Numbered from the stretch's first letter, positions 11,168-64,000 are shown. The stretch: DNA of 64,000 nt from an uncultured Anaerolineaceae bacterium (GCA_964389725.1 CAYMDV010000004.1:100145-164144), one strand, 5' to 3'. Translations and numbers: made by a program. The notes: generated from the letters alone by a model not told the origin.

Positions 11168-12075
11168 CCGGTAACGACCTTCAGGGCGCGAACACGGCCC
11201 GGCACGTCCACCTCGCCGACCCCCACGAAGGAGCCATCGGCGCCGTAGAGGCGCGCGAGCGTGGCCGGCCGCAGAAAGCCGCCGCGCGTCCACGCGACCT
11301 GCCCGTTGCGGATCTGCTGGGCGTGGCTCGTCGTGAGGATGGCGGCTGCACTCCCGGCGACCCCCTCGTCCGCGGGCCGCACGACTTCGTCGAGCTTGCC
11401 GGCCCCCGCGAACGCTCCCAGCGCCTCCACCGGCACGGCCTCTCGCACGTGGAAGGGGCCACTGCCCGTGCGCCGCAGGCTCGCCAGGTGCGCCCCGCAG
11501 CCGATCGCCCGCCCGATGTCGCGAGCGAGGCTGCGCACGTACATCCCCGCCCCGCAGTGCACATCCACGCGCAGCCGGTCGGGGGCGATGCGTTGCAGGC
11601 TGAGGGCGGTCACGGTTACCGGTCGCGGCTGCAGCTCCGGCGCCTCGCCCTCGCGGGCGAGCGCGTAGGCTCGCCGACCCTCCACCTTGACGGCGCTGTA
11701 GGCCGGCGGCGTCTGCATGATCTCCCCCGTGAACCGGCGCGCAATCGCCTCCAGGTCAATCTCGCCCTCGGGAACCGGGGCGGAGCGCGTGGGCTGGCCC
11801 TCGGCGTCGTCCGTGTCCGTCTCCTGGCCCAGGGCGATCTCGCCTTCGTACGCCTTCTCGCCCGGCATCATGTACTCCACAAGCCGCGTCGCCCGCCCCA
11901 GGCAGAGGACCAGCAGGCCCGTCGCCATCGGGTCGAGCGCGCCCGTGTGCCCGATGCGCCGCTGGCCGGTCAGCCGGCGGGAGCGCGCGACGACGTCGTG
12001 GCTCGTCCAGCCGGGCTCCTTGTCGATCAGGAGCACTCCCGTCAGGCCGGAGTCGCCCTTGCGGCGCGGGCTCAC
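11164..12075 (-). CDS. truB: tRNA pseudouridine(55) synthase
   Basis: GVLLIDKEPGWTSHDVV...GHTGALDPMATGLLVLCLG (catalytic Asp motif). Lies downstream of rbfA with a 4-nt overlap. Confidence 0.95.
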   Translation of the reverse strand: MSPRRKGDSGLTGVLLIDKEPGWTSHDVVARSRRLTGQRRIGHTGALDPMATGLLVLCLGRATRLVEYMMPGEKAYEGEIALGQETDTDDAEGQPTRSAPVPEGEIDLEAIARRFTGEIMQTPPAYSAVKVEGRRAYALAREGEAPELQPRPVTVTALSLQRIAPDRLRVDVHCGAGMYVRSLARDIGRAIGCGAHLASLRRTGSGPFHVREAVPVEALGAFAGAGKLDEVVRPADEGVAGSAAAILTTSHAQQIRNGQVAWTRGGFLRPATLARLYGADGSFVGVGEVDVPGRVRALKVVTG

Positions 12076-12452
12076 GAGCCGTCGTTCCCGCCGTCCGTCA
12101 CGTCACGGTCCCGGGCGAGCTCGGCGATGGTGGAGGCGAGGCGCGCCCCCCGTTCGATGGATGGGTCGAAGCGGAAACTGAGTGAGGGCGTGCGGCGCAG
12201 GCGCAGGCGCCGTCGCAGTTCGCGTTCCAGGAACGCCGAGGCGCTCTGCAGCCCCGCGAGCGCTTCGTCGCGCTCCTCCGTGCTGCCGAGATGGGAGACG
12301 AACACCGATGCGGTCCGCAGGTCCGCGCTCACCTCCACCTCCGTGATGGTGAGGAACGCCCCTTCGAGGCGTGGATCCTTGAGCTCCCGCTGGACGAGCT
12401 CGCTGAGCTCCTCGCGGAGCAACTCGCTGACACGGCTGGTGCGCCGGCTCAT
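12072..12452 (-). CDS. rbfA: ribosome-binding factor A
   Basis: 126-aa ORF; RVSELLREELSELVQRELKDPRL...LTITEVEVSADLRTASVFV. Conserved position between infB and truB. Confidence 0.93.
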   Translation of the reverse strand: MSRRTSRVSELLREELSELVQRELKDPRLEGAFLTITEVEVSADLRTASVFVSHLGSTEERDEALAGLQSASAFLERELRRRLRLRRTPSLSFRFDPSIERGARLASTIAELARDRDVTDGGNDGS

Positions 12453-12476
12453 CGTGATTCCACCCGGGTCCGCGCC

Positions 12477-14249
12477 CTAGTTGACGCGCTGCTGGTGGTA
12501 GAACTCCAGGAGGTCGCCTTCCTCGAAGGCGTCGAAGCGCTCCAGCACGATGCCGCACTCGAAGCCCTGCTGCACCTCGCGAACGTCGTCCTGGAAGCGG
12601 CGCAGCCCCTCGCAGGCGGCGTCGGTGATCTCCTCGCCGTTGCGAAGCACGCGCACGCGGTCGCCCCGCCGGAGCGTGCCGTCCGTGACGTAGCAGCCCG
12701 CAATCTGCCCGACTCGGCTCGAGCGGAAGAGCGCCCGCACCTCGGCCGTGCCGTCCACGACCCGCTCGTAGACGGGCTCGTACATCCCTTCGAGTGCCTG
12801 CTCGACGCTCTCCAGGAGCTGGTAGATGACGTCGTAGGTGCGAATCTCGACCCCGTTGACCTCCGCCTGGGCGGCGGCCGAAGGCTCGGTGCGCACGTTG
12901 AAGGCGAGGATGATCGCCCCCGAGGCGCCCGCCAGCATCACGTCCGATTCGCTCACGGGGCCCGTCGCGGAGTGGATGACCTTGATCTTCACCTCGCCCG
13001 TGCCCAGCCCCTGCAGCGAGCCCCGGATCGCCTCCCCGCTGCCCCGCACGTCCGTTTTCAGGATGAGCAGCAGCTCCTTCACGTTCCCGGCGCTGACTTC
13101 GTGGAAAAGCGTGTCGAGCGTGAGGTGGCCGCGTCGCGCGCCCGAGGCGCCTTCCGCGTCGCGCCGCGCCTGTTCGACGATGCGGCGCGCGGCGCGCTCG
13201 CTCTCGACGACTTCGATGGCGTCGCCTGCGGCGGGCACGTCCTCGAGCCCCATGATGCGCACCGGCCGGGCGGGACCCGCCTCCTCGAGGCGCTCCCCGC
13301 GCTCGTCGAACATCGCCTTCACCTTGCCGCTGATGAGCCCGCTCACGAGAGCGTCGCCCCGCCGCAGGGTGCCGTTGCGGACGAGTACGGTCGCCAGCGG
13401 CCCGCGGCGTGCGTCCAGCTCCGCCTCGACCACTGTGCCCGTGGCCAGTCGGTCCGGGCGCGCCGTCAGCTCCTGGATCTCCGCGAGGAGCTCGATCGAA
13501 TCGAGCAAGTCGCCGATCCCTTCCCCGGTGGTCGCCGAGACGGGTACGGCCAGGACATCGCCGCCGTAGTCCTCGACGACGACGCTCTGTTCGGTGAGCT
13601 GCTGCTTCACGCGGTCGGGATTGGCGGCCGGCAGGTCCGTCTTGTTGATGGCGATGATCATCGGCACGTCCGCGGCGCGCACATGGTCGATCGCCTCGAC
13701 CGACTGCGGCATCACGCCGTCGTCCGCTGCTACCACCACCACGGCGATGTCCGTGATCTGGGCACCGCGCGCCCGCATCGCGGTGAAGGCCGCGTGGCCG
13801 GGCGTGTCGATGAAGGTGATGGGGCTGCCCTTGCGCTCGATCTGGTAGGCGCCGATGTGCTGCGTGATGCCCCCTGCCTCGCCCGCGACGACGTTCGTCT
13901 CCCGGATCGCGTCCAGCAGGCTGGTCTTCCCGTGGTCCACGTGCCCGAGGATCGTGACCACCGGCGGCCGGGGAGTACCGGCGCCGTCCGCTTCCTCCTC
14001 GGCTTCGGGCGTGGTTGTTGCGACGGCCCCGGGGGCAGCCTCGTGTGAGGGCTCGAGCCCGAGCTCCGTGGAGACCATCGCGGCCGTCTCGTAGTCGATC
14101 GTGTCGTTCATGGCGGCCATCACGCCATGCGTCATGAGGCGCTTGATCGCCTCGATGGGGGTAATGCCCAGGCGCTCGCTCAACCCCTTGACGGTAATCG
14201 CCTCGGGGAGGGTGACGGTGCGCGGCCGGGACGACTGTCGGGCTGTCAT
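12477..14249 (-). CDS. infB: translation initiation factor IF-2
   Basis: Track ORF 12477..14375. I place the start at ATG 14249 (MTARQ...), which forms an ATGA overlap with the ylxR stop. GTPase motifs [21 protein letters not shown]; C-terminal domains are typical of IF-2. Confidence 0.95.
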
Positions 14250-14542
14250 GCTTCCTCCGCGTCTCTGTCGGGAATGGCTTCCTGGTAACGCCGCAGGCCC
14301 TCGAGATCGCCGGAATTCGGGGTCATGCGGAGGGCCTTGCCTATCGTAGCGCCTTGCAGGGCCTGCTCCCAACACGAACGCGAGCGGTGCAGGTACGCGC
14401 CCCGCCCGGCGAGCCGCTTCCCCGGCGATTCCACCGCCACGCCCCCCTCGGGCGCCCGCACGATGCGCACGAGTCCGCGCTTCCCGGCTACCTCGCGGCA
14501 GCCGATGCAGGTGCGCTGCGGCTCATGGCGCGCGGCTGCCAT
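14246..14542 (-). CDS. ylxR: YlxR/RnpM family (DUF448) RNA-binding protein
   Basis: 98-aa ORF; PQRTCIGCREVAGKRGLVRIV...GRGAYLH. Conserved position between nusA and infB. Confidence 0.9.
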   Translation of the reverse strand: MAAARHEPQRTCIGCREVAGKRGLVRIVRAPEGGVAVESPGKRLAGRGAYLHRSRSCWEQALQGATIGKALRMTPNSGDLEGLRRYQEAIPDRDAEEA

Positions 14543-14550
14543 TCCCGTCC

Positions 14551-16092
14551 TCAGTGGATCCGGCCTGCGTAGTCGATGTCGTCCTCGAAGTCGTCCTCTT
14601 CCACGCGCGGGGCCCGGCGGCGGCGCCGGGGGCTGGGCTCCTCCTCGCGGGCCGGCAGGACATCCTCGGCAAAGCGGATGGCGGTCGGGCGTTCCTCCGG
14701 CACCACCAGCGTGGGCACCGTGTATTCCTCACCCTCGTCGTCGTCGAACTCTTCCTCGCCGTAGTCCTCTGCCTCGCGCGTTTCCTCGTCCGGGATTTCC
14801 ATCTCGGCAAGGGCCGCGGGGAAGAGCACGTCCTCCTCTTGCTGCGTCCCGGCCAGCGCTGCCGGCTCTTCAGCGGCGACTGCCGCCGCAGCCGCGGCCG
14901 CCGGAACGGCCACGGGCGGGCGCACCGGCTCGTCCACGATGGGCGGCAGGGGCTCGTCCGGAAGCTGCAGAATGTCGAGGTCCGGTTCGGTCCCCGGCGG
15001 GAACGCGTCGAAGGCCGCGGGCGCCTCCACGATCGCGGCGCCCTCTACCTCGCGCTCCGTCCCGGTCTGGCTGCGGACGCTGATGCGGTAGCCCGTCAGC
15101 TTCGCTGTCAGGCGCGCGTTCTGTCCCTCCTTGCCGATGGCCAGGGAGAGCATGGAATCGGGCACGACCACTGTCGCCTCCCGCGTGTCCTCGTCGAGCT
15201 GCACCTCGACCACCTGTGCCGGGCTGAGCGCGTTGGTCACGAAGTTCACCGGGTCCGCGTCCCACTTGATGATGTCGACCCGCTCCCCGCCGAGCTCGTT
15301 CACGACGTTCTGGATGCGCGATCCGCGCATCCCCACGCACGCCCCGATCGGGTCCACGCTGGCGGCGCGACCGTGCACCGCCACCTTGCTGCGATGTCCG
15401 CCCTCGCGCGCGATTGCCTTGACCTCGACGCGCCCCTGGGCGATCTCGGGAACCTCGACCTCCAGCAGGCGGCGCAGCAGGAGGCGGTGCCCCCGGCTCA
15501 CGATCACCTGCGGGCCCTTCACCTCGTCGTTCACCTCGAGCAGCAGCACCTTCACGCGCTGGCCGGCGCGCAGGTGCTCGTTGCGCACCATCTCGCTGCC
15601 GGGCAGGAGCGCTTCCGTCCCGCGCCCGATCTCGACCGTGGCCTGGCGGTTCTCGACCCGCTGGACCGTGGCCAGCAGCACCTCGCCCTGCTTGTCCGCG
15701 TACTCCTCGTAGATGGCGCCCCGCTCGGCCTCCCGCAGCCGCTGCAGCACGACCTGCTTGGCCGTCTGCGCGGCGATGCGGCCCGCGTTCTCGGGCGGTT
15801 TCACCTCGAACTCGAGGATGTCGTCGATGCGCGCGTCTGGCTTGTAGCGCTTCGCCTCTTCGATATCCATCTCGAGGTTCTCGTCCTCGACCGTGCGGAC
15901 CACGGTCTTCTGGATGAAGGCGCTGATGTCGCCCGTCTCGCCCGAGATGCGCACGTGCACCTCCGGGCCTTCCTCGCCATCCCGGCGGTAGGCGGAGGCC
16001 AGCGCGGACTCGACGGCCTGGAAGATCACCTCGCGCGCGAGGTTCTTCTCCGCCGCCAACTGGCTGATCGCAAGCAGGAAGTCGTTCTTCAT
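14551..16092 (-). CDS. nusA: transcription termination/antitermination factor NusA with long acidic low-complexity C-terminal tail
   Basis: Track ORF 14551..16119. ATG at 16092 (MKNDFLLAISQLAAEKNL...) has GGGAGA upstream. N-terminal, S1 and KH1/KH2 regions are present (ACVGMRGSRIQNVVNELGGERVDI; AIGKEGQNARLTAKLTG). The last ~170 aa are Ala/Pro/Glu/Asp-rich. Confidence 0.95.
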   Translation of the reverse strand: MKNDFLLAISQLAAEKNLAREVIFQAVESALASAYRRDGEEGPEVHVRISGETGDISAFIQKTVVRTVEDENLEMDIEEAKRYKPDARIDDILEFEVKPPENAGRIAAQTAKQVVLQRLREAERGAIYEEYADKQGEVLLATVQRVENRQATVEIGRGTEALLPGSEMVRNEHLRAGQRVKVLLLEVNDEVKGPQVIVSRGHRLLLRRLLEVEVPEIAQGRVEVKAIAREGGHRSKVAVHGRAASVDPIGACVGMRGSRIQNVVNELGGERVDIIKWDADPVNFVTNALSPAQVVEVQLDEDTREATVVVPDSMLSLAIGKEGQNARLTAKLTGYRISVRSQTGTEREVEGAAIVEAPAAFDAFPPGTEPDLDILQLPDEPLPPIVDEPVRPPVAVPAAAAAAAVAAEEPAALAGTQQEEDVLFPAALAEMEIPDEETREAEDYGEEEFDDDEGEEYTVPTLVVPEERPTAIRFAEDVLPAREEEPSPRRRRRAPRVEEDDFEDDIDYAGRIH

Positions 16093-53075: not shown

Positions 53076-55196
53076 CTAGAGCGGCTCCACCCGGACGGCC
53101 GCGAACTTCAGCTCTGGTTGCTTCGAACGCGGGTCGACTGCCTCGCTGGTGACCGCGTTCACGGGCCCGCCCTCGTGCCGCAGGGCGCCCCAGTGAAACG
53201 GCGCCCAGACCGTGCCCGGACGCACTCTGCGGTCGACCCGGGCGCGGGCCTCGAAGCTCCCCCGGCGAGAGCTGACGCGAAGAGATCGGCCGTTGCGAAC
53301 GCCGAGCGGACGGGCGTCCACGGGGTGGATCTCGAGTACGGGCTCGACCTCGCTCTTGTTGAGCTTGGGTACGTCGCCCGTGCGGGTCATCGTGTGCCAC
53401 TGGTCCTTCACCCGCCCGGTAACGAGCGAGAGCGGATAGCGCTCGGTCAGGGCGTCGTCGGGCTCCCGATACGTGGGAACGTGGAAGCGCGCGCGACCGT
53501 CCGGCGTAGCGAAGGGCGCGCCCTCAAAGAGTCGCGGCCGTTCGCGTTCCCCCTCTGGAAGGGGCCACTGCACCCCGCCCGAGGAAGCTCGCAGCAGTTC
53601 GTAGCTGACACCCGTGATGTCGAGGTCCTGTCCCCGCGTGAACTCCCGATACTCGGCGAAGATCTCCTCCACATCGCCGTAGGAGAACGCCTCTTCGTGT
53701 CCGAGGGCGGCGGCGACGCGGCTGATGATCTCCCAGTCCGGAAGCGCCTCCCCGGGTGCCTCGCCGACGGCCTCGAGCAGGCAGATGCGGCGCTCGCTGT
53801 TCGTCATGGTGCCGGTGCGCTCGGACCACTGCGCCGCGGGCAAGAGGACGTCCGCCAGCTCGCCCGTCTCCGTGGGGTAGTAGGCATCCTGGACGACCAC
53901 CAGCTCGGCCTTCGCGAAGGCGGCGCGTACCCGTTCGCTGTTGGGAAGCGAGGCGACGGGGTTCGTGGCCGCTACCCACACGACCTTCAGTTCGCCCCGC
54001 TCCAGCCCCTCGACCATCTCCGAGGCGGTGACCCCCGGCCGGGAGGAGATCGAGCCGGCGGGGACTCCCCAGGCTGCCTCCACAACCCCCCGGTCTCGGG
54101 CGTTGGCGACGAGCCGGTGACCGGGCAGGGTGGGCGCGAGGCCTCCTGCCTCCCGGCCCCCCATCGCGTTCGGTTGGCCCGTCAGCGAGAAAGGCCCGGC
54201 GCCCGGGCGGCCGATGTTCCCCGTCGCCAGCGAGAGGTTGATTAGCGCGAGGTTCTTGTCGACCCCCGAGGTGCTCTGGCTCGCCCCCATCGTCCACAGG
54301 GTGAGGACGGGGCCGTTCGAGGCGATGAGCCGCGCCGCGTCGACAATCTCCTGGGCGGCCAGCCCCGTCAGGTCGGACGCGCGCTCGGCGGACCACCCCG
54401 CAAGCGAAGCGGCCACCTCGTCCCAGCCGCTCGTGTGCTCCGCGATGAACGCTTCGTCCAGGCCTCCCGCGAGCCGTATCTCGAAGAGCAGGGACTGCAG
54501 GAGCGCGACGTCGGTCCCTGGCTTGACCGGCAGGTAGAGGTCGGCGATCTCGGCCGTACGGGTGCGCCGCGGGTCCACCACGATCACCTTCACGTCGTCG
54601 CCGCCCCGGCGCTTTCGCGCCTTGATGCGATCGAACAGGATCGGGTGGCAGGCCTCGATGTTGGCCCCGAGGATGAGGAACGTGCTCGCCTGCTCGATGT
54701 CCGCGAACGAAGCCGGGGGTGAGTCGCTCCCGAAGGCGAGGCTGTAGGCCGCGACCGTGCTGGCCATGCAGAGACGCGAGTTCGTGTCCTGGTTGTTGGT
54801 CCCGATGTAGCCCTTGGCGAGCTTGCCGAAGAGGTAGTAGTCCTCCGTGTGGAGCTGGCCCGAGCCGTAGAACATGACCGAGTGCGGCCCGTGCTGATCG
54901 ATCGCCGAACTGATACCGCCGGCTACACGATCGATGGCCTCGTCCCAGGAGGCAGGGGCGAGCGCGCCGTCCTTGCTGAAGCGAATAGCCGGCCGCAGGA
55001 GGCGGTCCTCGGACTCGAAGATCGCGGGGAGAAGGGCGCCCTTCGCGCACAGCCGTCCCCGGTTCACCGGGTGGTCGGGGTCGCCCTTGACCTTTGCGAC
55101 CACCCCATCGCGGGCCTGGGCCAGGATCCCGCAGCCCGTCCCGCAGTAGCAGCAGATCGACCGAAGCCAGCCCTTGCCGCCGCGTTCTCCTGGCAC
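53076..55196 (-). CDS. assimilatory nitrate reductase catalytic subunit (molybdopterin oxidoreductase, NasA/NarB type)
   Basis: N-terminal 4Fe-4S motif CCYCGTGCG...C-x..GRLCAKG, then MGD-binding domains (TNNQDTNSRLCMAS). 706 aa. Sits between nirA and narK. Confidence 0.9.
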   Translation of the reverse strand: MPGERGGKGWLRSICCYCGTGCGILAQARDGVVAKVKGDPDHPVNRGRLCAKGALLPAIFESEDRLLRPAIRFSKDGALAPASWDEAIDRVAGGISSAIDQHGPHSVMFYGSGQLHTEDYYLFGKLAKGYIGTNNQDTNSRLCMASTVAAYSLAFGSDSPPASFADIEQASTFLILGANIEACHPILFDRIKARKRRGGDDVKVIVVDPRRTRTAEIADLYLPVKPGTDVALLQSLLFEIRLAGGLDEAFIAEHTSGWDEVAASLAGWSAERASDLTGLAAQEIVDAARLIASNGPVLTLWTMGASQSTSGVDKNLALINLSLATGNIGRPGAGPFSLTGQPNAMGGREAGGLAPTLPGHRLVANARDRGVVEAAWGVPAGSISSRPGVTASEMVEGLERGELKVVWVAATNPVASLPNSERVRAAFAKAELVVVQDAYYPTETGELADVLLPAAQWSERTGTMTNSERRICLLEAVGEAPGEALPDWEIISRVAAALGHEEAFSYGDVEEIFAEYREFTRGQDLDITGVSYELLRASSGGVQWPLPEGERERPRLFEGAPFATPDGRARFHVPTYREPDDALTERYPLSLVTGRVKDQWHTMTRTGDVPKLNKSEVEPVLEIHPVDARPLGVRNGRSLRVSSRRGSFEARARVDRRVRPGTVWAPFHWGALRHEGGPVNAVTSEAVDPRSKQPELKFAAVRVEPL

Positions 55197-55202
55197 CGCC
55201 AG

Positions 55203-56735
55203 CTAGCCCGCGGCCTCGGAGCTGGACTCGCGAACCCGCACCGCCCCACTGCCGCGTATCGACCGCAGGGAGTTGGCCACGGCTTCGGGCAGGTCGTCCA
55301 CCAGCACCCCCGTGCTGATCCGCTCGCCGAGGGCCGCATCCTCCCCGAGCTTCCCGCCCACGAACAGGTCCGCGGCGTCCACGATCGCCTCGCCCTTGCG
55401 GACGCGGCTGCCCAGCAAGCCGATCTCGCCCGCCCGGTGCTGTCCGCACGAGTGTGGGCAGCCCGACATCTGAAGCCGCACGGGCGCACCGATCTCGTAG
55501 CGCTCGTCGAGGGCGCGGGCGAGCTTGAGCGCTTCGCCCTTCGTGTCGATCAAGCTGAAGTGGCAGAACTCCGTCCCCGTACAGGTGACGACCGACCGCA
55601 TCCGGGGCGACGGTTCGGGGCTGAACGTCTCCAGGAGCGGCTCCCCCAGGAGGGCGTCCAGGCGGGACTCCCGCACATGCGGAATGAGCACGTTCTGTTG
55701 CACCGTGAGCCGCAGCTCCCCTTCGCCGCGCACCCGCGCCAGGCGACCGAACTCGATCAGCTGGTCTCCCGTGATCCTCCCGACCGGGACCAGGCAGCCG
55801 ACGACGCGTCGTCCAGGCTGCCTCTGCCCGGTCACGCCGATGTGGTCGCCACCGTCCCGCTGCGTCGCCGGTTCGCCCGCATGCCCGAGCGGGCGTCCGA
55901 AGCGTCCCTCGACCACCTCCCGAAAGCGCTCGATGCCCCACTCCTTCAGGAGCACCTTCAGCCGCGAGGCGCGCCGGGACTCGCGGGGACCGTGGTCGCG
56001 AAAGACCTCAAGGATGGCGGTCGCGAGCGGAACCACGTCCCCCGCCTCGACGAAGACGTCCAGTGGCTGGGCGTACATTGGCTCGCGGCCGCCCATCGCG
56101 CCGCCCACGAGGACGTTGAAGCCGGCGGTCTCTCGCTCGCCGCCCCGGGCGGGAACGAAGGAGAGATCGTGGGTCTGGGCGTGAATGCAGTCGTCCTGGC
56201 AGCCGGTAATGGCCAGGTTGAACTTGCGCGGCAGGTTGCTGAACCCTCTGTGCCCGATGATCGCCTGCTGGAGCCGCACCGCGAGCGCGCGGCTGTCGAC
56301 TAACTCGTCGGGATCGAGGCCGGCGATGGGGCATCCCACTACGTTGCGAACGTTGTCCATGCCGCTCTGCTGCGAGGTGATACCGGCAGCGGACAGACGC
56401 TGGAAGATCCAGGGGACGTCCTCGATCTCGATCCAGCGCAGCTGGATGTTCTGCCGCGTGGTAATGTCCGCCTGTCCCCGCCCGCAGCGATTCGCGATCT
56501 CGCCGATGGCACCGACCTGCTCGCTCGTGAGCACCCCGTTTGGGATCCGCAGCCGGAGCATGAAGTAGCCCGGAGTCGCCCTGCGGTGGAAGAGCCCGTA
56601 CCACTTCAGGCGCTCGAAGTCGTCCGGGTCTATCGCGGCGTGGCCTTCCTGCGCATAGCGAAGCAGGTCGGGAAACACCTCGAGCCCGTCCTTCGCCTGC
56701 TTCAGTGCTTCGATCTTGTTCGCCATCGACGCCAC
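55203..56735 (-). CDS. nirA: ferredoxin-nitrite reductase (siroheme/[4Fe-4S] sulfite/nitrite reductase family)
   Basis: 510-aa ORF with duplicated NiR/SiR ferredoxin-like halves. Cluster-binding motifs ITGCQDDC and TCTGTEFCHF...SGCPHSCGQH. Context is nitrate reductase and narK. Sulfite reductase cannot be excluded from the sequence alone. Confidence 0.85.
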   Translation of the reverse strand: MASMANKIEALKQAKDGLEVFPDLLRYAQEGHAAIDPDDFERLKWYGLFHRRATPGYFMLRLRIPNGVLTSEQVGAIGEIANRCGRGQADITTRQNIQLRWIEIEDVPWIFQRLSAAGITSQQSGMDNVRNVVGCPIAGLDPDELVDSRALAVRLQQAIIGHRGFSNLPRKFNLAITGCQDDCIHAQTHDLSFVPARGGERETAGFNVLVGGAMGGREPMYAQPLDVFVEAGDVVPLATAILEVFRDHGPRESRRASRLKVLLKEWGIERFREVVEGRFGRPLGHAGEPATQRDGGDHIGVTGQRQPGRRVVGCLVPVGRITGDQLIEFGRLARVRGEGELRLTVQQNVLIPHVRESRLDALLGEPLLETFSPEPSPRMRSVVTCTGTEFCHFSLIDTKGEALKLARALDERYEIGAPVRLQMSGCPHSCGQHRAGEIGLLGSRVRKGEAIVDAADLFVGGKLGEDAALGERISTGVLVDDLPEAVANSLRSIRGSGAVRVRESSSEAAG

Positions 56736-56920: not shown

Positions 56921-56949
56921 TAAGGGAGCCAGGCTCGCCCCGGCCCTTA
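56921..56949 (-). terminator. possible terminator hairpin overlapping the ImmA-like gene stop codon
   Basis: Reverse strand: TAAGGGCC-GGGGCGAGCCT-GG(CT)CCCTTA. This gives 6+2 bp with a 2-nt bulge. There is no U-tract, so support is weak. Confidence 0.2.
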
Positions 56950-57825
56950 TCGATGTTCGGGAAGACCTGGCTGGAGCGCAGCCGTTCTCGCCGGACTGCG
57001 TCGCTGTAGCGAGCGGGCTCCCATTTCGATTTCAACCAGCACCTGCCGCTGGTCATCGCGCAAGGGAACGCAGGTGACGACAGCGTGACGGTAACTGTGG
57101 GAGCCTCGAGGGAGCCGTCCCTGCTTGGTTGGCAGTTGCATGGGCGTCGATACCTCAGGAGTGAGCACGTCCTCGATTCCGAGACTCTGCGTCGTCAGTT
57201 GCTCTAGCTGTCGATACGTGGTCCGGTCATAGGCCCCCGAACGTACTCGGTAGTCACCGTGAGCATCGACCTCGCACATTAGCAGTATGCAGTCGGCACC
57301 CATAAGCGAAAGGTCATCCAAACGGATCATTGATGCCTGAAGCGACACCCCAAACTCATCGGCCAATTTGCGAAGCGCCGACAGGCGGGAGAGGTTCCTA
57401 TGGTGCCGAAGCGATCTCTTGAAAGTTTCTCCGGGCATGAGAAGCGCAGCGGCAAACTTGTCGCATCGCGTCTCTTCTTCCTGAGAGTAAGTGCGTGCGT
57501 CTGCCCCATCAACGCCGAAAATCAAGTGGTGTCCAAGTTCGTGCGCTAATGTGAATCGCTGTCGCTGCAGGCCCTCCCTCGTGCTCAACGCGATGCGAAG
57601 GCCAACGCTTGTCCACTCAATCCGACCGGACTCCGAGAGGGCCGTGGCTTGCACGACCTCGATGCCTTCGGATGTGGCTAAGTCGTGGACATTGACGGGT
57701 CCGCCAGAATCTCGAAGCAAACGCGAACCAAGCGTGTCCCCAAGTTGAATGGCGGCACGACGGCCCTTCTCGCCGTTACTAAGGTCCGCGGCCGTGCTCT
57801 GCCTCTTCTTGGGTAGCCTGATCAT
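56947..57825 (-). CDS. ImmA/IrrE family (COG2856, peptidase M78) zinc metallopeptidase with C-terminal extension
   Basis: 292-aa ORF. HExxH active site in RQRFTLAHELGHHLIF, downstream E (EETRCDKFAAALLMP). About 130-aa C-terminal domain of unknown type. The ATG (57825-57823) directly abuts the TGA of the upstream HD gene. Low G+C. Confidence 0.85.
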   Translation of the reverse strand: MIRLPKKRQSTAADLSNGEKGRRAAIQLGDTLGSRLLRDSGGPVNVHDLATSEGIEVVQATALSESGRIEWTSVGLRIALSTREGLQRQRFTLAHELGHHLIFGVDGADARTYSQEEETRCDKFAAALLMPGETFKRSLRHHRNLSRLSALRKLADEFGVSLQASMIRLDDLSLMGADCILLMCEVDAHGDYRVRSGAYDRTTYRQLEQLTTQSLGIEDVLTPEVSTPMQLPTKQGRLPRGSHSYRHAVVTCVPLRDDQRQVLVEIEMGARSLQRRSPARTAALQPGLPEHR

Positions 57826-59808
57826 TCAAAGGAGCCTGCCGGATCCAGCGCCATCCAAGTACTCTCGGACAGCCAGCTCGAAGGCAAGCTTCGCAGGATC
57901 AGTCTCATCTGTCGCGCCGCCTCCTCGTCGGGCCGCTGGGCCCTTCCCCAGCTTGGCGCGGAAGCGATCTTCAAAGTCGTGGGGCGACTCGTGGATTGTG
58001 CCCAACACTCGGTCGAGGTCAGATGGCGCCTCCAAGACTCCATCGGCCAACTCGTCGAGGAATAGGGCCAGGTTTAGGCGAGCGACCCCTTCGTCCGTAT
58101 CGAGAGCGAATTCCTGCTGGCCCACCATCGCCGTGGAGCCTGCAGCCGCAGCAACGGTGGCGTGGAGTTCTGGATGTTCAATGCTGATACGCTCTCTCCC
58201 CCTCCACTGCGATAGCCTGTCCTCGCTGTGTTGTCTCGGGCTCGCTGCCGAGTCCCACTCGCTAATTCCGAGCTTCTCCTGAAGGCTAGCCAGAACCACC
58301 GTGCGCTGGTGGTCTGAGAGTCGGGGGTCTACGTAAACGCGCATTGCCCAGAGCCCGTGGTGGCTCTCGATAATCTCCGAGCCTCGTGCCCCGTTCGCCC
58401 GGTCCCATGTCTCGAGCGAGACGATTTCGCTTGGCGACCCATCGTCCACCAGCACGTCGGCTGGCTTAAGGCGCATCGCTGGGTTAGGCACCCAGAGCGC
58501 AACCATCCACCCGTGCTCCGCACCTGCCCGGCGGGCTGCGTATCGCTCTACGTCGGCCCTTGCCTTGGGGTCGCGGTAACGTTGATAAAGTCTGTCTCCC
58601 ATGTGTCTCTTTGTGTATTCGCCGATCGGCTTGAAGAGCCTGCGCCTCTGAAGCTGTTTCACGATGTCTGCGACACCCTCCCAGGGTCCATGCGAATCAC
58701 GTTGCCCAGCCTCGTACAGCATGTGCTCAAGCAATCCGTCGTCCCCTCGTCGCAGTGCTTCCGCTTCGATTCGCTCCTTTGCATCAACACCGGAATCCTC
58801 TTCCGCGAGGGCGGTCTCCCACATCTCCATCGCTTTTCCGACCATCACGTCAGCTGCGAGTTTGGCATGGTGGACTAACGCGCGCTCGCTCAGTTCGTAG
58901 CGATAGCGCAAGTACTTGAAGAGCTCGGAGACAACGTCGGCTCGTTGCCGGTTGCCCCTAGTGATCCGAATCACCATGCGGCGCGGATAGTCTGAGTGGT
59001 CCGACCGGGTGACATAGAACCCGTCAAGAAACCTACTACCAAATGCGGCCGGCAAGCCTGTGTGCAGATGGTCTCGCTGAAGGTAGTCAATCAGGTCCGC
59101 ACAGATGGTATTGCCAACAAGGTCATAGACGAACGGGTACTTCTTGGGTATCGACTGAGCCTGGCCAGACTTCGAGAGGATGAGGGGCTTCAGTTGCTCG
59201 GTCAGTTCCTTTGGCACCTTGATCCCATGCCGTGCGACGTCTGACGGCTCGTTCAGATCGGCCTCGATAGCATCCCAGAGGGTCTCGTAACGCTCTTCGT
59301 TCGCATCATGTGATCTGAAGAATCCCAGGTCATCTTCCAAAGTGTGACCAAACGGAACATGACCGAGGTCGTGCAAGAGCCCGCCCAGCCGAGCAAGGAC
59401 CGTAGCCTCACCCACCATTCGTTGAAACTCTTCGGGGGTCTCGTTCTCACGCCACTGTTCGAAGAGGTCAGGGATGGGGTGTCTCTCCGCCCCCTGCCGC
59501 AAGACTACGTCCATGAGATCCTGCGCTGCGCGGAGAGTACCTAGCGCATGGGAGAAACGCGTGTGCGTGGCACTCGGATACACCAACTGGGTAGTTCCGA
59601 GTTGGCGCACCCGTCGCAGTCGCTGGAGCGAAGCAGTGTCGAGAACAGCGGTCTCGAGCACGGTGAGGTAGATGTCCCCATGGATTGGGTCAGTGATCTG
59701 CTTATGAGGGTGTAGCCACTCCGAGGGTAAGCCCCACGGCCGGGCCTTGAGTTGTTCCTCGGTCAGTCCCCACTTAGGCAAGAGCACGCCCCCAAAGCCA
59801 TGATACAT
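57826..59808 (-). CDS. SAMHD1-like HD-domain deoxynucleoside triphosphate triphosphohydrolase-family protein with ~310-aa uncharacterised C-terminal region
   Basis: 660-aa ORF. ITDPIHGDIYLTVLE, LQRLRRVRQLG, VYPSATHTRFSHALGT (H), LLHDLGHVPFGH (HD...H), ICADLIDYLQRDHLHTG (D). This is the SAMHD1/dGTPase HD motif order. GAGAGGG lies upstream of the ATG. Low G+C. Confidence 0.85.
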   Translation of the reverse strand: MYHGFGGVLLPKWGLTEEQLKARPWGLPSEWLHPHKQITDPIHGDIYLTVLETAVLDTASLQRLRRVRQLGTTQLVYPSATHTRFSHALGTLRAAQDLMDVVLRQGAERHPIPDLFEQWRENETPEEFQRMVGEATVLARLGGLLHDLGHVPFGHTLEDDLGFFRSHDANEERYETLWDAIEADLNEPSDVARHGIKVPKELTEQLKPLILSKSGQAQSIPKKYPFVYDLVGNTICADLIDYLQRDHLHTGLPAAFGSRFLDGFYVTRSDHSDYPRRMVIRITRGNRQRADVVSELFKYLRYRYELSERALVHHAKLAADVMVGKAMEMWETALAEEDSGVDAKERIEAEALRRGDDGLLEHMLYEAGQRDSHGPWEGVADIVKQLQRRRLFKPIGEYTKRHMGDRLYQRYRDPKARADVERYAARRAGAEHGWMVALWVPNPAMRLKPADVLVDDGSPSEIVSLETWDRANGARGSEIIESHHGLWAMRVYVDPRLSDHQRTVVLASLQEKLGISEWDSAASPRQHSEDRLSQWRGRERISIEHPELHATVAAAAGSTAMVGQQEFALDTDEGVARLNLALFLDELADGVLEAPSDLDRVLGTIHESPHDFEDRFRAKLGKGPAARRGGGATDETDPAKLAFELAVREYLDGAGSGRLL

Positions 59809-59845
59809 CCTGCCCTCTCGGGGCCACTGCTGAACGGCCCCTGCC

Positions 59846-59934
59846 CGTGACTAGGACGTGACCTCCTCGGATACGCTCACGTGTTCTATCCATTATGCTA
59901 TTGAGGGCCTTGGTGGCCTGCGAAGGCACAGGCC
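59846..59934. promoter_or_regulatory. divergent control region between HD/ImmA operon and SIR2-APAZ/pAgo operon with repeated CGTGA motifs and back-to-back -10-like boxes
   Basis: CGTGAC occurs at 59846-51 and 59857-62 (11-bp spacing), with an inverted TCACG at 59877-81. TGCTATTGA (59896-59904, + strand, same TGCTAT core as the nusA and ftsH elements) overlaps CATAAT on the - strand (59897-59892). Inverted repeat GGCCTG-N8-CAGGCC lies at 59915-59934. Confidence 0.25.
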
Positions 59935-59995
59935 TCAGCGCCGCTCCGCGACTAAGTCTTCTCGTCTTGTCGCTCAAAACTGAGGAGCTCGCCTC

Positions 59996-61894
59996 TTGCC
60001 CGGATCGGCAACTGTGAGAAACCCTACAAACCCCGACTCGGACCACATCCTAGCTGGACAGCCCGAGCTTGCTGCCTTCGCTCGGAGCTTCTCGCAGCGA
60101 GCGCCGCGACTTGCCTGGTTCCTCGGTGCGGGTGCTAGTGCCCAGTCGTTCGTCCCCACGGCTGAACAACTGGTCGACGTTCTGTTGCGACAAATCTACT
60201 GCACCGAGCGCGGCGTTCCGGTCGACTCGATTGACTTGGGGGACCGTCATCAACGCCGAAGGCTGCATGAGATATACAGCGGTCAAGAGGGCCTCTCCCT
60301 TGATGGCGATCCGAGCTTCTACTCGGAGGTCTTTGAGCGTGCCTACGCGAGCCCGCAGGACCGGGCGGCATTCATCGAGAGTCAGGTACGGGAGGCTGCT
60401 CCAAACTATGGCCATCAGGTGCTGGCGGCGCTTGTTGCAGCAAACTCCCTGCGGCTCGTTGCCACCACCAACTTCGATCCGCTCATCGAGCGGGCGATCA
60501 ATCCGCTGCTTGACGGCCAGTTGTTGGATGGCCGCCAACTCGATGTAGCAGATCTTGACAATCCAGGCAGAGTGGCCAGGGCTCTGTCAGCCGATCGATG
60601 GCCTCTCCTCGTGAAGCTGCACGGGGACTACCGCTCTGACGACCTCAAGAACATTTCGACAGAACTTCAGGAGCAGGACGAGGAACTGCGGCGCACGATG
60701 ACTAGCGCCCTGTCTCGACTTGGTTTGGTGGTCGTTGGCTACAGCGGTCGTGACGAGTCGATTATCAACATGCTTCAGGACGTGCTCGCTTTGCCAACGC
60801 CGTTCCCGGCTGGCTTGGTCTGGGTGAAGCGTCCGCAAGACGCGCTGCTGCCATCCGTCGCGGACCTGTTGTCCAATGCGCAGGCGGCGGGCGTGGAGAC
60901 ATCCATCGTGACTGCTAGTTCCTTCGTAGACCTCACGACGCGAATTCAGCAGGCGATGACGCTGCCGACGCCCGTTAGACAGTGGCTTTCTGCGAGGGCT
61001 CCAACGCTGACTCGTCGGGCCGAGACAGCCGTTAAGGGGCCAACGGGCACAGGGCCCATCCTTCAGCTCAACGCTCTTCCCGTTGAACAACTCCCCTCTA
61101 AGGCCAGACGCCTCGAGTGGGCCGCCAATCCCGTTTCGATAGATAGCCTCCGCGAGGCGCTACGTGGCCCCGAGCGGAACGCTCTGGTGGGCCTGGTGAG
61201 CGGCACTGCCGCAGCGTTTGGACAAGACTCGACCCTACGGGCAGCACTTGTCGGTGCTGGGGTTCGGGTTACCGATGCCTACGAGTCACTCGACCTAGGT
61301 GCTGACGACTCAGGCGAAGTGGATACTCAGGCCCTTGGTCTTGTCACGGATGCCTTAGTTGTCGGGCTCGCAAGGCTGCGAGGTCTCAGGCCTGTGTTGC
61401 GTCGCCATCGGCCACACCTGCTCCGAGTTATCCGTCCGAACGACCCAGCTCTTCAGCCGTTGAATCGAGCTTGTGGCGGTCCACTGAGGGGAGAAATCCA
61501 CCACCGCGCCTCCGGTCTCCGACTTCCGTGGGCAGAGGCAGTCTCGGCCAATCTGGAGCGGAGACATGGCCAGTGGTGGCTGCTACTCAACCCAGAAATC
61601 TGGACTCGGCGCGAACCGCTCCCAGGGGATGGCGGGGCACCCCCTTCGCACGCCGAACTTGGCGCGCTTCTCGACCAGCGCAAGGAGTTCATTCGAGAGA
61701 GGAACGCAAAGCGGTACAACCGGCAGACGGGGGAAATCTTGACGGCGTGGATGGAAATCCTGACTGGGGGCCAGCGGGCCGAAATCAGGACGTTCGGCCT
61801 GCAAGGTGGCGCAGGCATCGATGCAGGCTTCGTGCTGGACGGTAGGGCTGCGACTAGTCTTCCGCTTCTCTCTCGAAACGGATCACGAGACTAA
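59996..61894 (+). CDS. SIR2-APAZ protein (NADase effector partner of short pAgo; SPARSA-type)
   Basis: 632-aa ORF. The start is uncertain (TTG 59996 or GTG 60014). SIR2_2-type motifs: LAWFLGAGASAQSFVPT (Rossmann G-A-G-x-S), LVATTNFDPLIERA (catalytic Asn region), LLVKLHGDYRSDD (catalytic His), VVVGYSGRDESI. The C-terminal ~330 aa matches the expected APAZ position. Its stop overlaps the pAgo ATG (TAATG). Confidence 0.85.
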   Translation: MPGSATVRNPTNPDSDHILAGQPELAAFARSFSQRAPRLAWFLGAGASAQSFVPTAEQLVDVLLRQIYCTERGVPVDSIDLGDRHQRRRLHEIYSGQEGLSLDGDPSFYSEVFERAYASPQDRAAFIESQVREAAPNYGHQVLAALVAANSLRLVATTNFDPLIERAINPLLDGQLLDGRQLDVADLDNPGRVARALSADRWPLLVKLHGDYRSDDLKNISTELQEQDEELRRTMTSALSRLGLVVVGYSGRDESIINMLQDVLALPTPFPAGLVWVKRPQDALLPSVADLLSNAQAAGVETSIVTASSFVDLTTRIQQAMTLPTPVRQWLSARAPTLTRRAETAVKGPTGTGPILQLNALPVEQLPSKARRLEWAANPVSIDSLREALRGPERNALVGLVSGTAAAFGQDSTLRAALVGAGVRVTDAYESLDLGADDSGEVDTQALGLVTDALVVGLARLRGLRPVLRRHRPHLLRVIRPNDPALQPLNRACGGPLRGEIHHRASGLRLPWAEAVSANLERRHGQWWLLLNPEIWTRREPLPGDGGAPPSHAELGALLDQRKEFIRERNAKRYNRQTGEILTAWMEILTGGQRAEIRTFGLQGGAGIDAGFVLDGRAATSLPLLSRNGSRD

Positions 61895-63321
61895 TGCCGG
61901 GAAGCCTCGTCGACCTCGCTCCGTACGTCGTCATCCCAGAACCGCTGTTGAGCTTCGACCCCGTCGATCCTTCCCAGCGGGCCCTCAATCCTCAGGTCGG
62001 CCTCCTCAGGCATGGTCCGTTTTCGGCTCGCAATTGGCCTGAAGAAGAAGCCGCCGTGCGAGTCGCAATGCTCTCGCCCGAGGACGACCTGCAGAAGCTA
62101 AAGGATCTGTTGAACGAGATTCATTCCAGACAGCGTGTCATCGAGAGACGTCCCTACCTTCCCGACTACCCCGGCTTTCGCGGCGCATTCCACTGTCCGA
62201 TCGTTCCTGCAGCCGAAGCCGCCCAAGTCTCGCTACCCTCTGACTTGGATGACCGCTTCGAGGGCGCGCTCGAGCCACATGGCGAATTAGTGGCAACCTT
62301 CTCTCACAGCCTGCGCCAACTCAAGGCCGTCCAATCGCTGTTCGATGTCGTCGTCTTCTACCTGCCCAAGAGGTGGCAGCGTGCGTTCGTCGTAGGGGAT
62401 TTCGACTTGCACGACGCGATCAAGGCCGACGCAGCTCAATTGGGCCTGCCAACGCAGATTGTCACGGACGACGCCATCGAGTACCGCTGTAGGGCGAGCG
62501 TCGCTTGGCGCCTTGGCCAAGCGTTGTACGCCAAAGCAGGGGGTGTGCCCTACAAGCTTGCCACGAACACTGGGCTCCTCGACGCTGACGCTGCCTTTGT
62601 AGGCCTTGCCTATGCAACGCGGAAACGCGATGACGGGGCGACCGCGTTCACGGTGTGTGCTAGCCAGATTTTTGACTCCGCAGGCGGTGGTATGGACTTC
62701 GTCGCCTTTGAAGTCTCAGATGATGTGGATCCAGAGAACCCCCTTCTCAGTCGAGAGCAAATGCGCGGCGTCATATCAGCGACCCTAGGGGTCTACGCCG
62801 ACCGTACGTCGGGCCACCGTCCACGCCGGCTTGTTGTCCACAAAGTGCTCCCGTTCACAGAGGAGGAAGTTGCTGGCTGCGCCGACGCATGGGGCGAGGG
62901 CACGGACCTCGAGTGCATCAGCCTCTCGCGGTCCCCCTGGCTTGGCGTTGAACTGATGCCAGGTGGGACAGGGCAGTGGAGCTATGCCATGCGTCGAGGG
63001 ACACTGTTGCCACTGGATGACTTCAGTCGGCTTATCTGGGTGGCGGGGAATGCTCCTTCGGCCACCTTGTCAGGCAAGGCAAACTACTTTCAGTCCGGCA
63101 AAGGCGTGCCGCGACCGCTCCTGATGACCCGTTGGGCGGGTACTGGCGACCTTACCCAAGCAGCAACCGAGGTCTTGGCGCTAAGTAAGATCGACTGGAA
63201 CAACGATGCGCTCTACGACGCCATCCCGGTGACTGTGCGATATGCCCAGATCCTTGCCAGAGTGGTGAAGCACGTTCCTGCTCTGCCCCAGATCCCCTTC
63301 GACTACCGGCTCTTCATGTAG
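61894..63321 (+). CDS. short prokaryotic Argonaute (MID-PIWI only)
   Basis: 475-aa ORF, too short for the N/PAZ domains. MID-like 5'-end pocket pattern H173-x3-K177 (FDLHDAIKAD), Q188 (LPTQIV), K214 (ALYAKAGGVPYKL). The PIWI-like C-terminal half ends in a hydrophobic tail (...PFDYRLFM). I could not locate a DEDX tetrad by eye. Operonic with the SIR2-APAZ gene. Confidence 0.85.
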   Translation: MPGSLVDLAPYVVIPEPLLSFDPVDPSQRALNPQVGLLRHGPFSARNWPEEEAAVRVAMLSPEDDLQKLKDLLNEIHSRQRVIERRPYLPDYPGFRGAFHCPIVPAAEAAQVSLPSDLDDRFEGALEPHGELVATFSHSLRQLKAVQSLFDVVVFYLPKRWQRAFVVGDFDLHDAIKADAAQLGLPTQIVTDDAIEYRCRASVAWRLGQALYAKAGGVPYKLATNTGLLDADAAFVGLAYATRKRDDGATAFTVCASQIFDSAGGGMDFVAFEVSDDVDPENPLLSREQMRGVISATLGVYADRTSGHRPRRLVVHKVLPFTEEEVAGCADAWGEGTDLECISLSRSPWLGVELMPGGTGQWSYAMRRGTLLPLDDFSRLIWVAGNAPSATLSGKANYFQSGKGVPRPLLMTRWAGTGDLTQAATEVLALSKIDWNNDALYDAIPVTVRYAQILARVVKHVPALPQIPFDYRLFM

Positions 63322-63369
63322 CCAGCCACGATCAGTTCCACAGGTGCAGTCGGATGGCGCCGGTGGGGT

Positions 63370-63390
63370 GCCCGACCTCGGGCTTGATTG
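63370..63390 (+). terminator. possible intrinsic terminator downstream of pAgo
   Basis: GCCCG-ACCT-CGGGC followed by TTGATTG, ~50 nt after the pAgo stop. The stem is short (5 bp), so support is weak. Confidence 0.25.
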
Positions 63391-63728
63391 CCGAGCTCCC
63401 GGTTTGGAGGCCGCGCGCTAGCCAGCGTCTTGTTTCTGCCTAGGCGCTGGTGGACGAGACTCGTCCGCTACAGTCCTAGGCAACCCCTGCCCACGCAATT
63501 GGGCGCGCGCGATCATCCGCGCCAGTATCCGCAGCCCCGACTCCAGCGTCTCGCGCTGCTCTGCCGTGTAGGTGTCCCGCCCCGTCGCGTCGTCCATACG
63601 TTAGCTCTCCCGTATCGCCTTCCAGCGTTCCGGTAGGAGGTCGGTGGGACAACTACTTGGGAGGGGATGCATGGGTGAACCCGGCGTGCTTCCCGGGCAC
63701 TTTGCGGTCAGCCCGCTAGACTGACGCC

Positions 63729-64000
63729 GTGACCGCGACCCAGGACGCCAACAGCGCCACGACCGGCTACGAGGCCGAGCTGTGGGGGATGGCCGACGCC
63801 CTCCGCGGGAGCATGGACGCGGCCGAGTACAAGCACGTCGTTCTCGGGCTTATCTTCCTCAAGTACATCTCCGACGCCTTCGAGGAGGCCCACGCCAGGC
63901 TCGTGTCGGAGCAGGACCAGGGGGCCGACCCCGAGGACCCCGACGAGTACCGCGCCCAGAGCATCTTCTGGGTGCCGCCGGAGGCGCGCTGGGCGTACCT
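63729..64000 (+). CDS. hsdM: type I restriction-modification system methyltransferase subunit HsdM (5' part; continues beyond window)
   Basis: Not in the ORF track because it is open at the window edge. GTG at 63729 is the first start after an in-frame TAG (63717-19). My translation: [58 protein letters not shown]...[15 protein letters not shown]. This is the classic HsdM N-terminal domain. Confidence 0.85.

Follow-up and report, generated by a model that had tools for sequence, protein, structure and literature searches.

Does the end of a 64,000-nucleotide stretch of DNA from an uncultured Anaerolineaceae bacterium (GCA_964389725.1 CAYMDV010000004.1:100145-164144; hereafter the window) encode a complete short prokaryotic Argonaute (pAgo) immune system and, if it does, of which class? 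From the sequence alone, a first-pass annotation had read positions 59996-63321 as an operon of a Sir2-APAZ gene and a short pAgo gene of the SPARSA type, and had described the class as known. Both parts of that reading held, and none of the refuting conditions proposed with it that could be checked on the sequence came true. As judged from its sequence, the locus very probably encodes a short-Argonaute immune system of the SPARSA-B type (clade S1B), with both of its genes intact, and its closest counterpart is the solved system of Geobacter sulfurreducens (GsSir2/Ago, or GsSPARSA). With class criteria taken from Koopal et al. 2022 and Zaremba et al. 2022, every SPARSA-B/S1B hallmark that can be tested in a sequence is present in the operon or in its predicted products.

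Two overlapping genes

The operon and its parts are listed below; coordinates count from the first letter of the window, and NADase stands for nicotinamide adenine dinucleotide (NAD+) hydrolase.

59982..59987, plus strand: Shine-Dalgarno-like GAGGAG, 8 nucleotides 5' of the TTG of gene 1, read from the sequence
59996..61894, plus strand: gene 1, Sir2-APAZ, predicted NADase effector subunit (632 amino acids, TTG start)
60077..60988, plus strand: Sir2 (NADase) domain, gene 1 residues ~28-331, limits transferred from GsSir2 and approximate
60125-60139, plus strand: GAGAS motif, gene 1 residues 44-48
60470-60472, 60620-60622 and 60752-60754, plus strand: Sir2 residues N159, H209 and D253, placed by alignment to GsSir2
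61055..61891, plus strand: APAZ domain, gene 1 residues ~354-632, aligned to GsSir2-APAZ, limits approximate
61892..61896, plus strand: TAATG stop/start overlap of genes 1 and 2
61894..63321, plus strand: gene 2, short pAgo, MID-PIWI only, predicted guide-loaded sensor subunit (475 amino acids, ATG start)
62410..62535, plus strand: MID 5'-phosphate pocket, with H173 (62410-62412), K177 (62422-62424), Q188 (62455-62457) and K214 (62533-62535)
62608..63249, plus strand: PIWI RNase-H-fold core, catalytic tetrad lost, placed by hhalign of the family profile against Thermus thermophilus Argonaute (TtAgo)
62608-62610, 62725-62727, 62845-62847 and 63247-63249, plus strand: PIWI residues A239, V278 (in a loop, mapping uncertain), V318 and Q452

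The two open reading frames (ORFs), their TAATG junction and three sequence motifs of gene 1 all lie where the first-pass annotation had placed them. The motifs are FLGAGAS (residues 42-48, 60119-60139), TTNFDPLIE (residues 157-165, 60464-60490) and KLHGDYRSDD (residues 207-216, 60614-60643). The start of gene 1 is fixed to within six codons, since an in-frame TGA (59981-59983) closes its frame upstream and the only other in-frame start within the first 50 codons is a GTG at codon 7 (60014). At the junction, the TAA of gene 1 (61892-61894) and the ATG of gene 2 have one base in common, and gene 2 is read in a different frame from gene 1. This TAATG overlap couples the two genes. Overlaps of 11 bp and 8 bp have been described for GsSir2/Ago and for CcSir2/Ago of Caballeronia cordobensis, respectively (bioRxiv 10.1101/2021.12.14.472599). 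Neither ORF contains a frameshift or an internal stop, and each is complete when measured against its profile.

A scan of 59600-63800 with an E. coli-type sigma-70 consensus, which is uninformative for this host, returned no promoter-like site, and terminator-like sites in the same interval did not exceed the shuffled expectation, in a scan equally uninformative here. Neither of the two intergenic regions flanking the operon contains inverted repeats, so no operator can be proposed.

The public NCBI gene model of the pAgo has 417 amino acids, starts 58 codons late at M59 and carries no name. The 475-amino-acid form was called in a Logan assembly, and close homologues of 475 amino acids cover 99-100% of the query. 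The public pAgo annotation is probably truncated at its N-terminus.

Gene 1 encodes a Sir2-APAZ protein

The first-pass annotation had assigned gene 1 to the Sir2 family from its motifs, and had placed APAZ in the ~330-residue region that follows. Profile searches bore out the first assignment: gene 1 matched Pfam SIR2_2 at E 5e-13 and the PADLOC profile Aga_SIR2-PNTD1-PNTD2 at E 1.2e-142, the latter practically end to end (profile positions 1-554 of 558). Among PDB sequences it matched only the Sir2-APAZ chains of the G. sulfurreducens SPARSA (8in8_B, 8jkz_A, 8jl0_A), with residues 28-592 aligned to residues 9-550 of 8in8_B (E 1.8e-62).

In the solved chain, Sir2 extends to about residue 308 and APAZ occupies residues 331-587 (PMC10781750). 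The APAZ part of gene 1 aligned with GsSir2-APAZ residues ~331-550. Because the alignment spans the residues of the Gs APAZ, the ~330-residue C-terminal region can be called homologous to the solved domain, in keeping with the full-length PADLOC match; no Pfam model matches this region. Neither Pfam nor PADLOC returned a TIR, a DREN/DUF4365 or any other nuclease match in gene 1.

The residues on which Sir2 activity depends are conserved. GsSir2 N142, H186 and D230 align with N159, H209 and D253 of gene 1. Across 73 Sir2-APAZ genes from related loci, G44, G46, S48, N159, F160 and D161 are invariant, as are K207, H209, G210, D211 and the stretch G248-Y249-S250-G251 with D253. In the Gs protein, N142A or H186A abolishes NADase activity (PMC10781750) and D230A abolishes defence (bioRxiv 10.1101/2021.12.14.472599).

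Gene 2 encodes a MID-PIWI Argonaute that has lost its catalytic tetrad

Gene 2 matched the PADLOC profile pAgo_I at E 3.7e-156 (profile positions 4-457 of 457) and the 473-residue GsAgo chain 8in8_C at E 4.7e-86, end to end (query 3-475 on chain 3-473). In the PDB sequence ranking, GsAgo was followed by SPARDA and SPARTA pAgos (E 1e-24 to 1e-16) and then by long pAgos (E >=1e-5). An AlphaFold2 model built from an alignment of 27 family members reached a mean predicted local distance difference test score of 84.2 and a predicted template modelling score of 0.86. When this model was compared with the PDB using Foldseek, the top matches were SPARSA chains (8k87_A, 8y7z_B, 8in8_C, 8jkz_B), with template modelling (TM) scores of 0.84-0.89 and 33-34% identity to the SPARSA pAgo chains in the Foldseek alignments. 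SPARDA chains (20-24% identity) and SPARTA chains (17-20%) gave TM scores of 0.76-0.83. Since the model spans the whole SPARSA pAgo chain, N and PAZ domains are absent, and the proposal that gene 2 is a MID-PIWI-only protein stands.

The MID domain keeps its pocket for the guide 5' end. The first-pass annotation had picked out H173, K177, Q188 and K214 as the 5'-end-binding tetrad, and alignment identified them as true equivalents of GsAgo H166, K170, Q181 and K207. K177, Q188 and K214 also correspond to TtAgo K422, Q433 and K457 (hhalign). All four residues are invariant, both in the 27 closest relatives (27/27) and in a wider set of 82 (82/82). In GsAgo, K170A strongly reduces NADase activity, and H166A and Q181A do not (PMC10781750).

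The lack of an Asp-Glu-Asp-X (DEDX) catalytic tetrad, which had been noted by eye, was assessed against TtAgo. Its sequence was translated from plasmid pTT27, and residues 478/512/546/660 were confirmed as D/E/D/D. The family profile aligned with it at a probability of 90.6% (hhalign, E 1.3e-6), placing D478 at A239, D546 at V318 and D660 at Q452; E512 fell at V278, within a loop where the alignment is unreliable. The neighbouring D279 is conserved only in the closest clade. In the 82 relatives, the commonest residues listed are A/S at column 239, T/Q/S/V/N/R at column 318 and Q/K/H/R/S/G at column 452, none of them acidic; an Asp occupies column 452 in two of the 27 closest relatives. From this alignment, the gene 2 protein cannot be a slicer and its DEDX tetrad is lost, because the equivalents of D478, D546 and D660 are non-acidic. 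The same is reported for GsAgo (PMC11452484) and for all short pAgos (PMC9097488).

The two genes are conserved as a unit

To place the operon among its relatives, we compared pAgo homologues and the loci that carry them. At E<=1e-10, 409 pAgo homologues were found among the candidates scored. The closest of them (77-81% identity) are from metagenome assemblies, of which one is labelled Chloroflexota; Actinomycetes metagenome-assembled genomes (MAGs) follow at ~55%, then Amycolatopsis, Mycolicibacterium, Paraburkholderia, Stenotrophomonas, Rhodanobacter, Geobacteraceae and others at 40-45%. A pattern scan of species-representative genomes, combined with alignment to the family, confirmed at least 531 pAgo relatives; the family alignment served as query there, a single pAgo sequence having returned no relative.

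High G+C content, which the first-pass annotation had suggested might set this example apart, does not do so: pAgo relatives are plentiful in high-G+C genomes of Actinomycetota, Chloroflexota and Proteobacteria, and what is unstudied is this particular clade. The hosts of characterised SPARSA systems themselves exceed 60% G+C.

Of the 85 loci fetched, 84 have a gene 1 homologue immediately 5' of the pAgo gene and in the same orientation; in the sole exception the contig provides only 76 bases before the pAgo. The surroundings of close relatives differ, with IS21 elements and GmrSD, Fic, AbiEii and AAA_15 genes. This synteny, together with the differing neighbourhoods, identifies the two-gene operon as the conserved unit. 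The APAZ protein has been described as the only gene specifically tied to short pAgos (PMC9097488).

In the closest full-length relative (81% identity; ena:ERZ28763718:ctg123131, 11696-16076), two IS21-type transposase/IstB gene pairs come after the SPARSA operon, a context that suggests that the operon moves with insertion sequences.

Proposed mechanism and what weighs against it

The GsSPARSA subunits assemble as an inactive heterodimer, whose pAgo takes up short 5'-phosphorylated RNA guides with a 5'-AU bias (PMC11452484, PMC10781750). Pairing with target single-stranded DNA shifts a sensor loop and frees Sir2, and the complex assembles into a tetramer, a dimer of dimers (PMC11452484, PMC10781750). 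The loop that carries H186 moves by up to 9 Å to meet N142, and NAD+ is converted to ADP-ribose and nicotinamide (PMC11452484, PMC10781750). As a result, the invaded cell dies or becomes dormant (PMC11452484, PMC10781750; bioRxiv 10.1101/2021.12.14.472599).

In all likelihood the operon works in a GsSPARSA-like manner, given full-length homology and the presence of all essential catalytic and 5'-phosphate-binding residues. Genes 1 and 2 would be expressed from one translationally coupled transcript and yield a 1:1 heterodimer, in which the APAZ half of gene 1 would replace the missing N-PAZ lobe and bind the 475-residue pAgo. The pAgo would load a short 5'-phosphorylated guide (RNA in the characterised system), with its 5' end held in the H173/K177/Q188/K214 pocket. 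Through this guide, the pAgo would pair with plasmid or phage single-stranded DNA of complementary sequence without cutting it, the tetrad being replaced by A, V and Q. Target binding would then trigger oligomerisation, into tetramers in GsSPARSA, and bring the loop with H209 beside N159. Sir2 would hydrolyse NAD+, and the infected cell would stop growing or die, that is, undergo abortive infection. Gene layout, homology, the predicted fold, the kept catalytic and guide-binding residues, the loss of DEDX and the conserved pairing come from the analysis itself; we infer the heterodimer, the guide chemistry, tetramerisation, NADase activity and the protective phenotype by homology.

Nothing that we found contradicts the assignment to SPARSA-B, and several observations weigh against it to some degree. 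Gene 2 has no match in NCBIfam or in Pfam, even at E<=10. The characterised proteins share only about a third of their residues with these (in the Foldseek alignments, 33-34% for the pAgo). GsAgo contacts the 5'-AU(A) bases of the guide through N184, R190 and N195, whose positions are taken here by T191, Y197 and S202; in GsAgo, mutation of these three residues abolishes activity because recognition of the guide 5'-AU(A) is lost (PMC10781750). Finally, GsSir2 Y168, at a tetramer interface, aligns with a non-aromatic residue in an alignment read by eye. This system and GsSPARSA may thus differ in guide preference and in details of how they oligomerise, as some of the residues probed in the Gs proteins are not conserved.

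The missing Pfam and NCBIfam matches also have a practical side. The Piwi assignment of gene 2 draws on the PADLOC and PDB matches and on the predicted fold. As Pfam and NCBIfam miss this pAgo, a close relative bears the name "nuclease PIN", and the majority are unnamed or "hypothetical protein". With these two databases blind to the pAgo, and with a gene model as short as the NCBI one, such loci are easily missed or mis-called in MAGs.

The substituted guide contacts raise a further question. Y197 and S202 are invariant among the 27 closest relatives. We consider it possible, though on the unlikely side, that this clade, with its Chloroflexota (77-81%) and Actinomycetota (~55%) relatives, selects guides unlike those of GsSPARSA. 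Another 5'-end rule, or another guide source (for example not ColE1-type origin transcripts), is conceivable because a 5'-AU preference would sample few transcripts at ~70% G+C. In the fetched loci, the search pattern CRASVxWRL forces S at the S202 column; the 82-locus alignment was dropped as a gauge of the rarity of S202, since the pattern fixes S there.

Genomic setting

The wider surroundings bear on how the operon arrived and on its possible partners. Two further features flank it:

56947-59808, minus strand: HD-protein/M78-peptidase gene pair (660 and 292 amino acids), divergent from the SPARSA operon
63729-64000, plus strand: start of a type I restriction-modification hsdM gene, cut by the window end (Pfam HsdM_N, E 1e-18)

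G+C content is 68-73% up to ~56.5 kb of the window and 58-63% from there to ~63.5 kb. The operon sits in a horizontally acquired low-G+C island that runs off the window end, horizontal acquisition being deduced from the fall in G+C over the last ~7 kb. The left edge of the island abuts the start of a minus-strand gene (55203-56735) and its right edge lies beyond the window. No tRNA gene is present in the 64-kb window, so a tRNA-linked integration site cannot be named, and no integrase was seen. Together, hsdM, the SPARSA operon and the HD/M78 pair mark a defence island. Housekeeping proteins encoded in the window share 90%-identity clusters with proteins named "Chloroflexi/Chloroflexota bacterium", which makes a Chloroflexota MAG the probable host.

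At the island border, 53076-56735 (minus strand) holds two large genes with translations of 706 and 510 amino acids, which by eye resemble an assimilatory nitrate reductase (molybdopterin oxidoreductase) and a nitrite/sulfite reductase, respectively. Between the pAgo gene and hsdM lies an ORF of 59 amino acids (63418-63597, minus strand), without a Pfam match, for which a gene call is also present on the short-read contigs L001 and L002.

The HD/M78 pair is separated from gene 1 by 187 bp (59809-59995). Residues 35-398 of the 660-amino-acid protein have a SAMHD1-type HD deoxynucleoside triphosphatase (dNTPase) fold (PDB 9mr6_A, E 3e-19; SAMHD1, ~1e-16), followed by a C-terminal extension of ~260 residues; the protein weakly matches PADLOC and NCBIfam dGTPase models. 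The 292-amino-acid protein, whose gene comes directly after, is an M78 peptidase (ImmA/IrrE, CapP-like), matching Pfam Peptidase_M78 at E 2e-17, PADLOC capP at 9e-26 and RmrA at ~1e-13, and no helix-turn-helix domain was found in it. In relatives of the HD protein at 75, 59, 50 and 45% identity, an M78 gene (292-305 amino acids) directly follows in all four, and the four lie in otherwise unrelated contexts. PADLOC v2 names no system for the pair, and a literature search for the pairing of HD and M78 returned nothing. The pair has the look of a conserved module outside the systems that PADLOC names. It could be an as yet uncharacterised defence or toxin-antitoxin module, one that depletes dNTPs and is regulated by the protease, loosely analogous to the Clover dNTPase/nucleotidyltransferase (NTase) system (PMC12265719).

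The SPARSA copy brings little gain for basic biology, since the genetics, biochemistry and structure of SPARSA have already been worked out and no defining feature is missing from this copy. It places SPARSA on record in a Chloroflexota-like high-G+C lineage, and it marks the edge of a defence island. Within that island, the HD/M78 pair is more interesting than the SPARSA copy and is the part most deserving of further work.

Alternative explanations

The proximity of the two pairs raises the idea of one composite four-gene system, in which SPARSA and the divergent HD-dNTPase/M78 pair act together, for example with the peptidase or the dNTPase controlling the Argonaute or under its control. They are adjacent and divergent across the 187-bp spacer, within the same low-G+C island, and the same arrangement recurs on L001 and L002. 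However, the gene products on these contigs are identical to those of the window, which points to the same organism and not to independent evidence. None of the 83 other pAgo loci contains an HD or M78 homologue, and the four HD relatives have M78 next to them but no SIR2 or pAgo gene called within 5 kb. With the APAZ protein as the sole gene specifically associated with short pAgos (PMC9097488), we regard a composite system as very improbable. Just as improbable, in our view, is a Sir2 domain that serves as a target-specific enzyme, either an NAD+-dependent protein deacylase or an ADP-ribosyltransferase, and not as a bulk NADase. The Asn-His dyad is common to sirtuin deacetylases (PMC10781750), and gene 1 has weak NCBIfam matches to CobB-type deacylases (E 1e-4 to 4e-3). 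Yet these matches score 16-21 bits against curated cut-offs of 243-320, whereas the best full-length match is to the SIR2-APAZ family, and those of its members that have been tested hydrolyse NAD+ (PMC10781750, PMC11452484, PMC9097488, bioRxiv 10.1101/2021.12.14.472599).

The idea that the locus has lost its function, as a decaying or silent remnant, has slightly less to recommend it still. Horizontal acquisition, the absence of a sigma-70-like promoter from the scan and the short NCBI model of 417 amino acids would fit such a state, but both ORFs are uninterrupted and complete against their profiles, and all family-invariant catalytic and guide-binding residues are kept. The promoter scan relied on an E. 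coli-type consensus, uninformative for this host, and the short model is an annotation choice, the 475-amino-acid form matching homologues at 100% coverage. As for an active long-type Argonaute nuclease that cleaves the invader itself, membership of the Argonaute superfamily is all that speaks for it. A protein of 475 amino acids that aligns end to end with GsAgo leaves no space for N and PAZ domains; the equivalents of D478/D546/D660 are A/V/Q, and at both Asp columns no acidic residue is listed in the 82 relatives. We consider this explanation effectively refuted, and retain an intact SPARSA-B system as the reading of the locus.

Comparison with known systems

Gene 2 has in common with long-A pAgos such as TtAgo a MID-PIWI core and the Lys/Gln/Lys trio for guide 5'-end binding. 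The long-A proteins differ in having an N domain, PAZ and the DEDX tetrad, none of which gene 2 has. A long, catalytically active pAgo was accordingly rejected for lack of N and PAZ and loss of DEDX.

SPARTA (TIR-APAZ) and SPARDA (DREN-APAZ) are closer. Both combine the short pAgo fold (TM 0.76-0.83) with an APAZ partner, and both, like SPARSA, proceed from guide-dependent sensing through oligomerisation to a toxic effector. In them the effector is TIR or the DREN nuclease, whereas here it is SIR2, and pAgo identity is 17-24%. SPARTA (clade S2A) was set aside because gene 1 has no TIR match and SPARTA pAgos are only 17-20% identical; SPARDA (clade S2B), because there is no DREN/DUF4365 match and its pAgos rank below those of SPARSA in both sequence and fold searches.

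The fused proteins of clade S1A, PgSir2-Ago (Paraburkholderia graminis) and JomSIR2-APAZ-Ago (Joostella marina), have homologous domains. The PADLOC profile for the fused form, PDLC02420, aligns with gene 1 over positions 8-513 and with gene 2 over 549-1010. S1A members are one polypeptide, whereas here there are two, separated by the TAA stop and a change of frame; membership of S1A was rejected as genes 1 and 2 are unfused. Separate SIR2-APAZ and pAgo genes are the arrangement of CcSir2/Ago and of XavSIR2-APAZ/pAgo from Xanthomonas vesicatoria (S1B), for which NAD depletion or defence has been demonstrated (PMC9097488; bioRxiv 10.1101/2021.12.14.472599). The pAgos of proteobacterial relatives in the fetched loci share 40-45% identity with gene 2.

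The closest match is GsSir2/Ago (8IN8, 8JKZ, 8JL0, 8K87, 8K88, 8Y7Z, 8Y80, 8Y82), whose pAgo is also the best structural match of the gene 2 model. As here, it is an overlapping two-gene operon encoding Sir2, linker and APAZ, then MID-PIWI, and both proteins align over their full length. The Sir2 Asn/His/Asp and the MID H-K-Q-K residues are kept and DEDX is lost in both systems, and the C-termini resemble each other (...DYRLFM here, ...DYRFFM in Gs). They differ in that gene 1 has 632 amino acids against 587 for GsSir2-APAZ, with an N-terminal extension of ~19 residues that is less conserved, and in their hosts, the present one being a probable Chloroflexota with ~70% G+C and not a Geobacter. 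We conclude that the operon is a new and fairly divergent member of an already known system, with about one-third identity to the proteins characterised so far.

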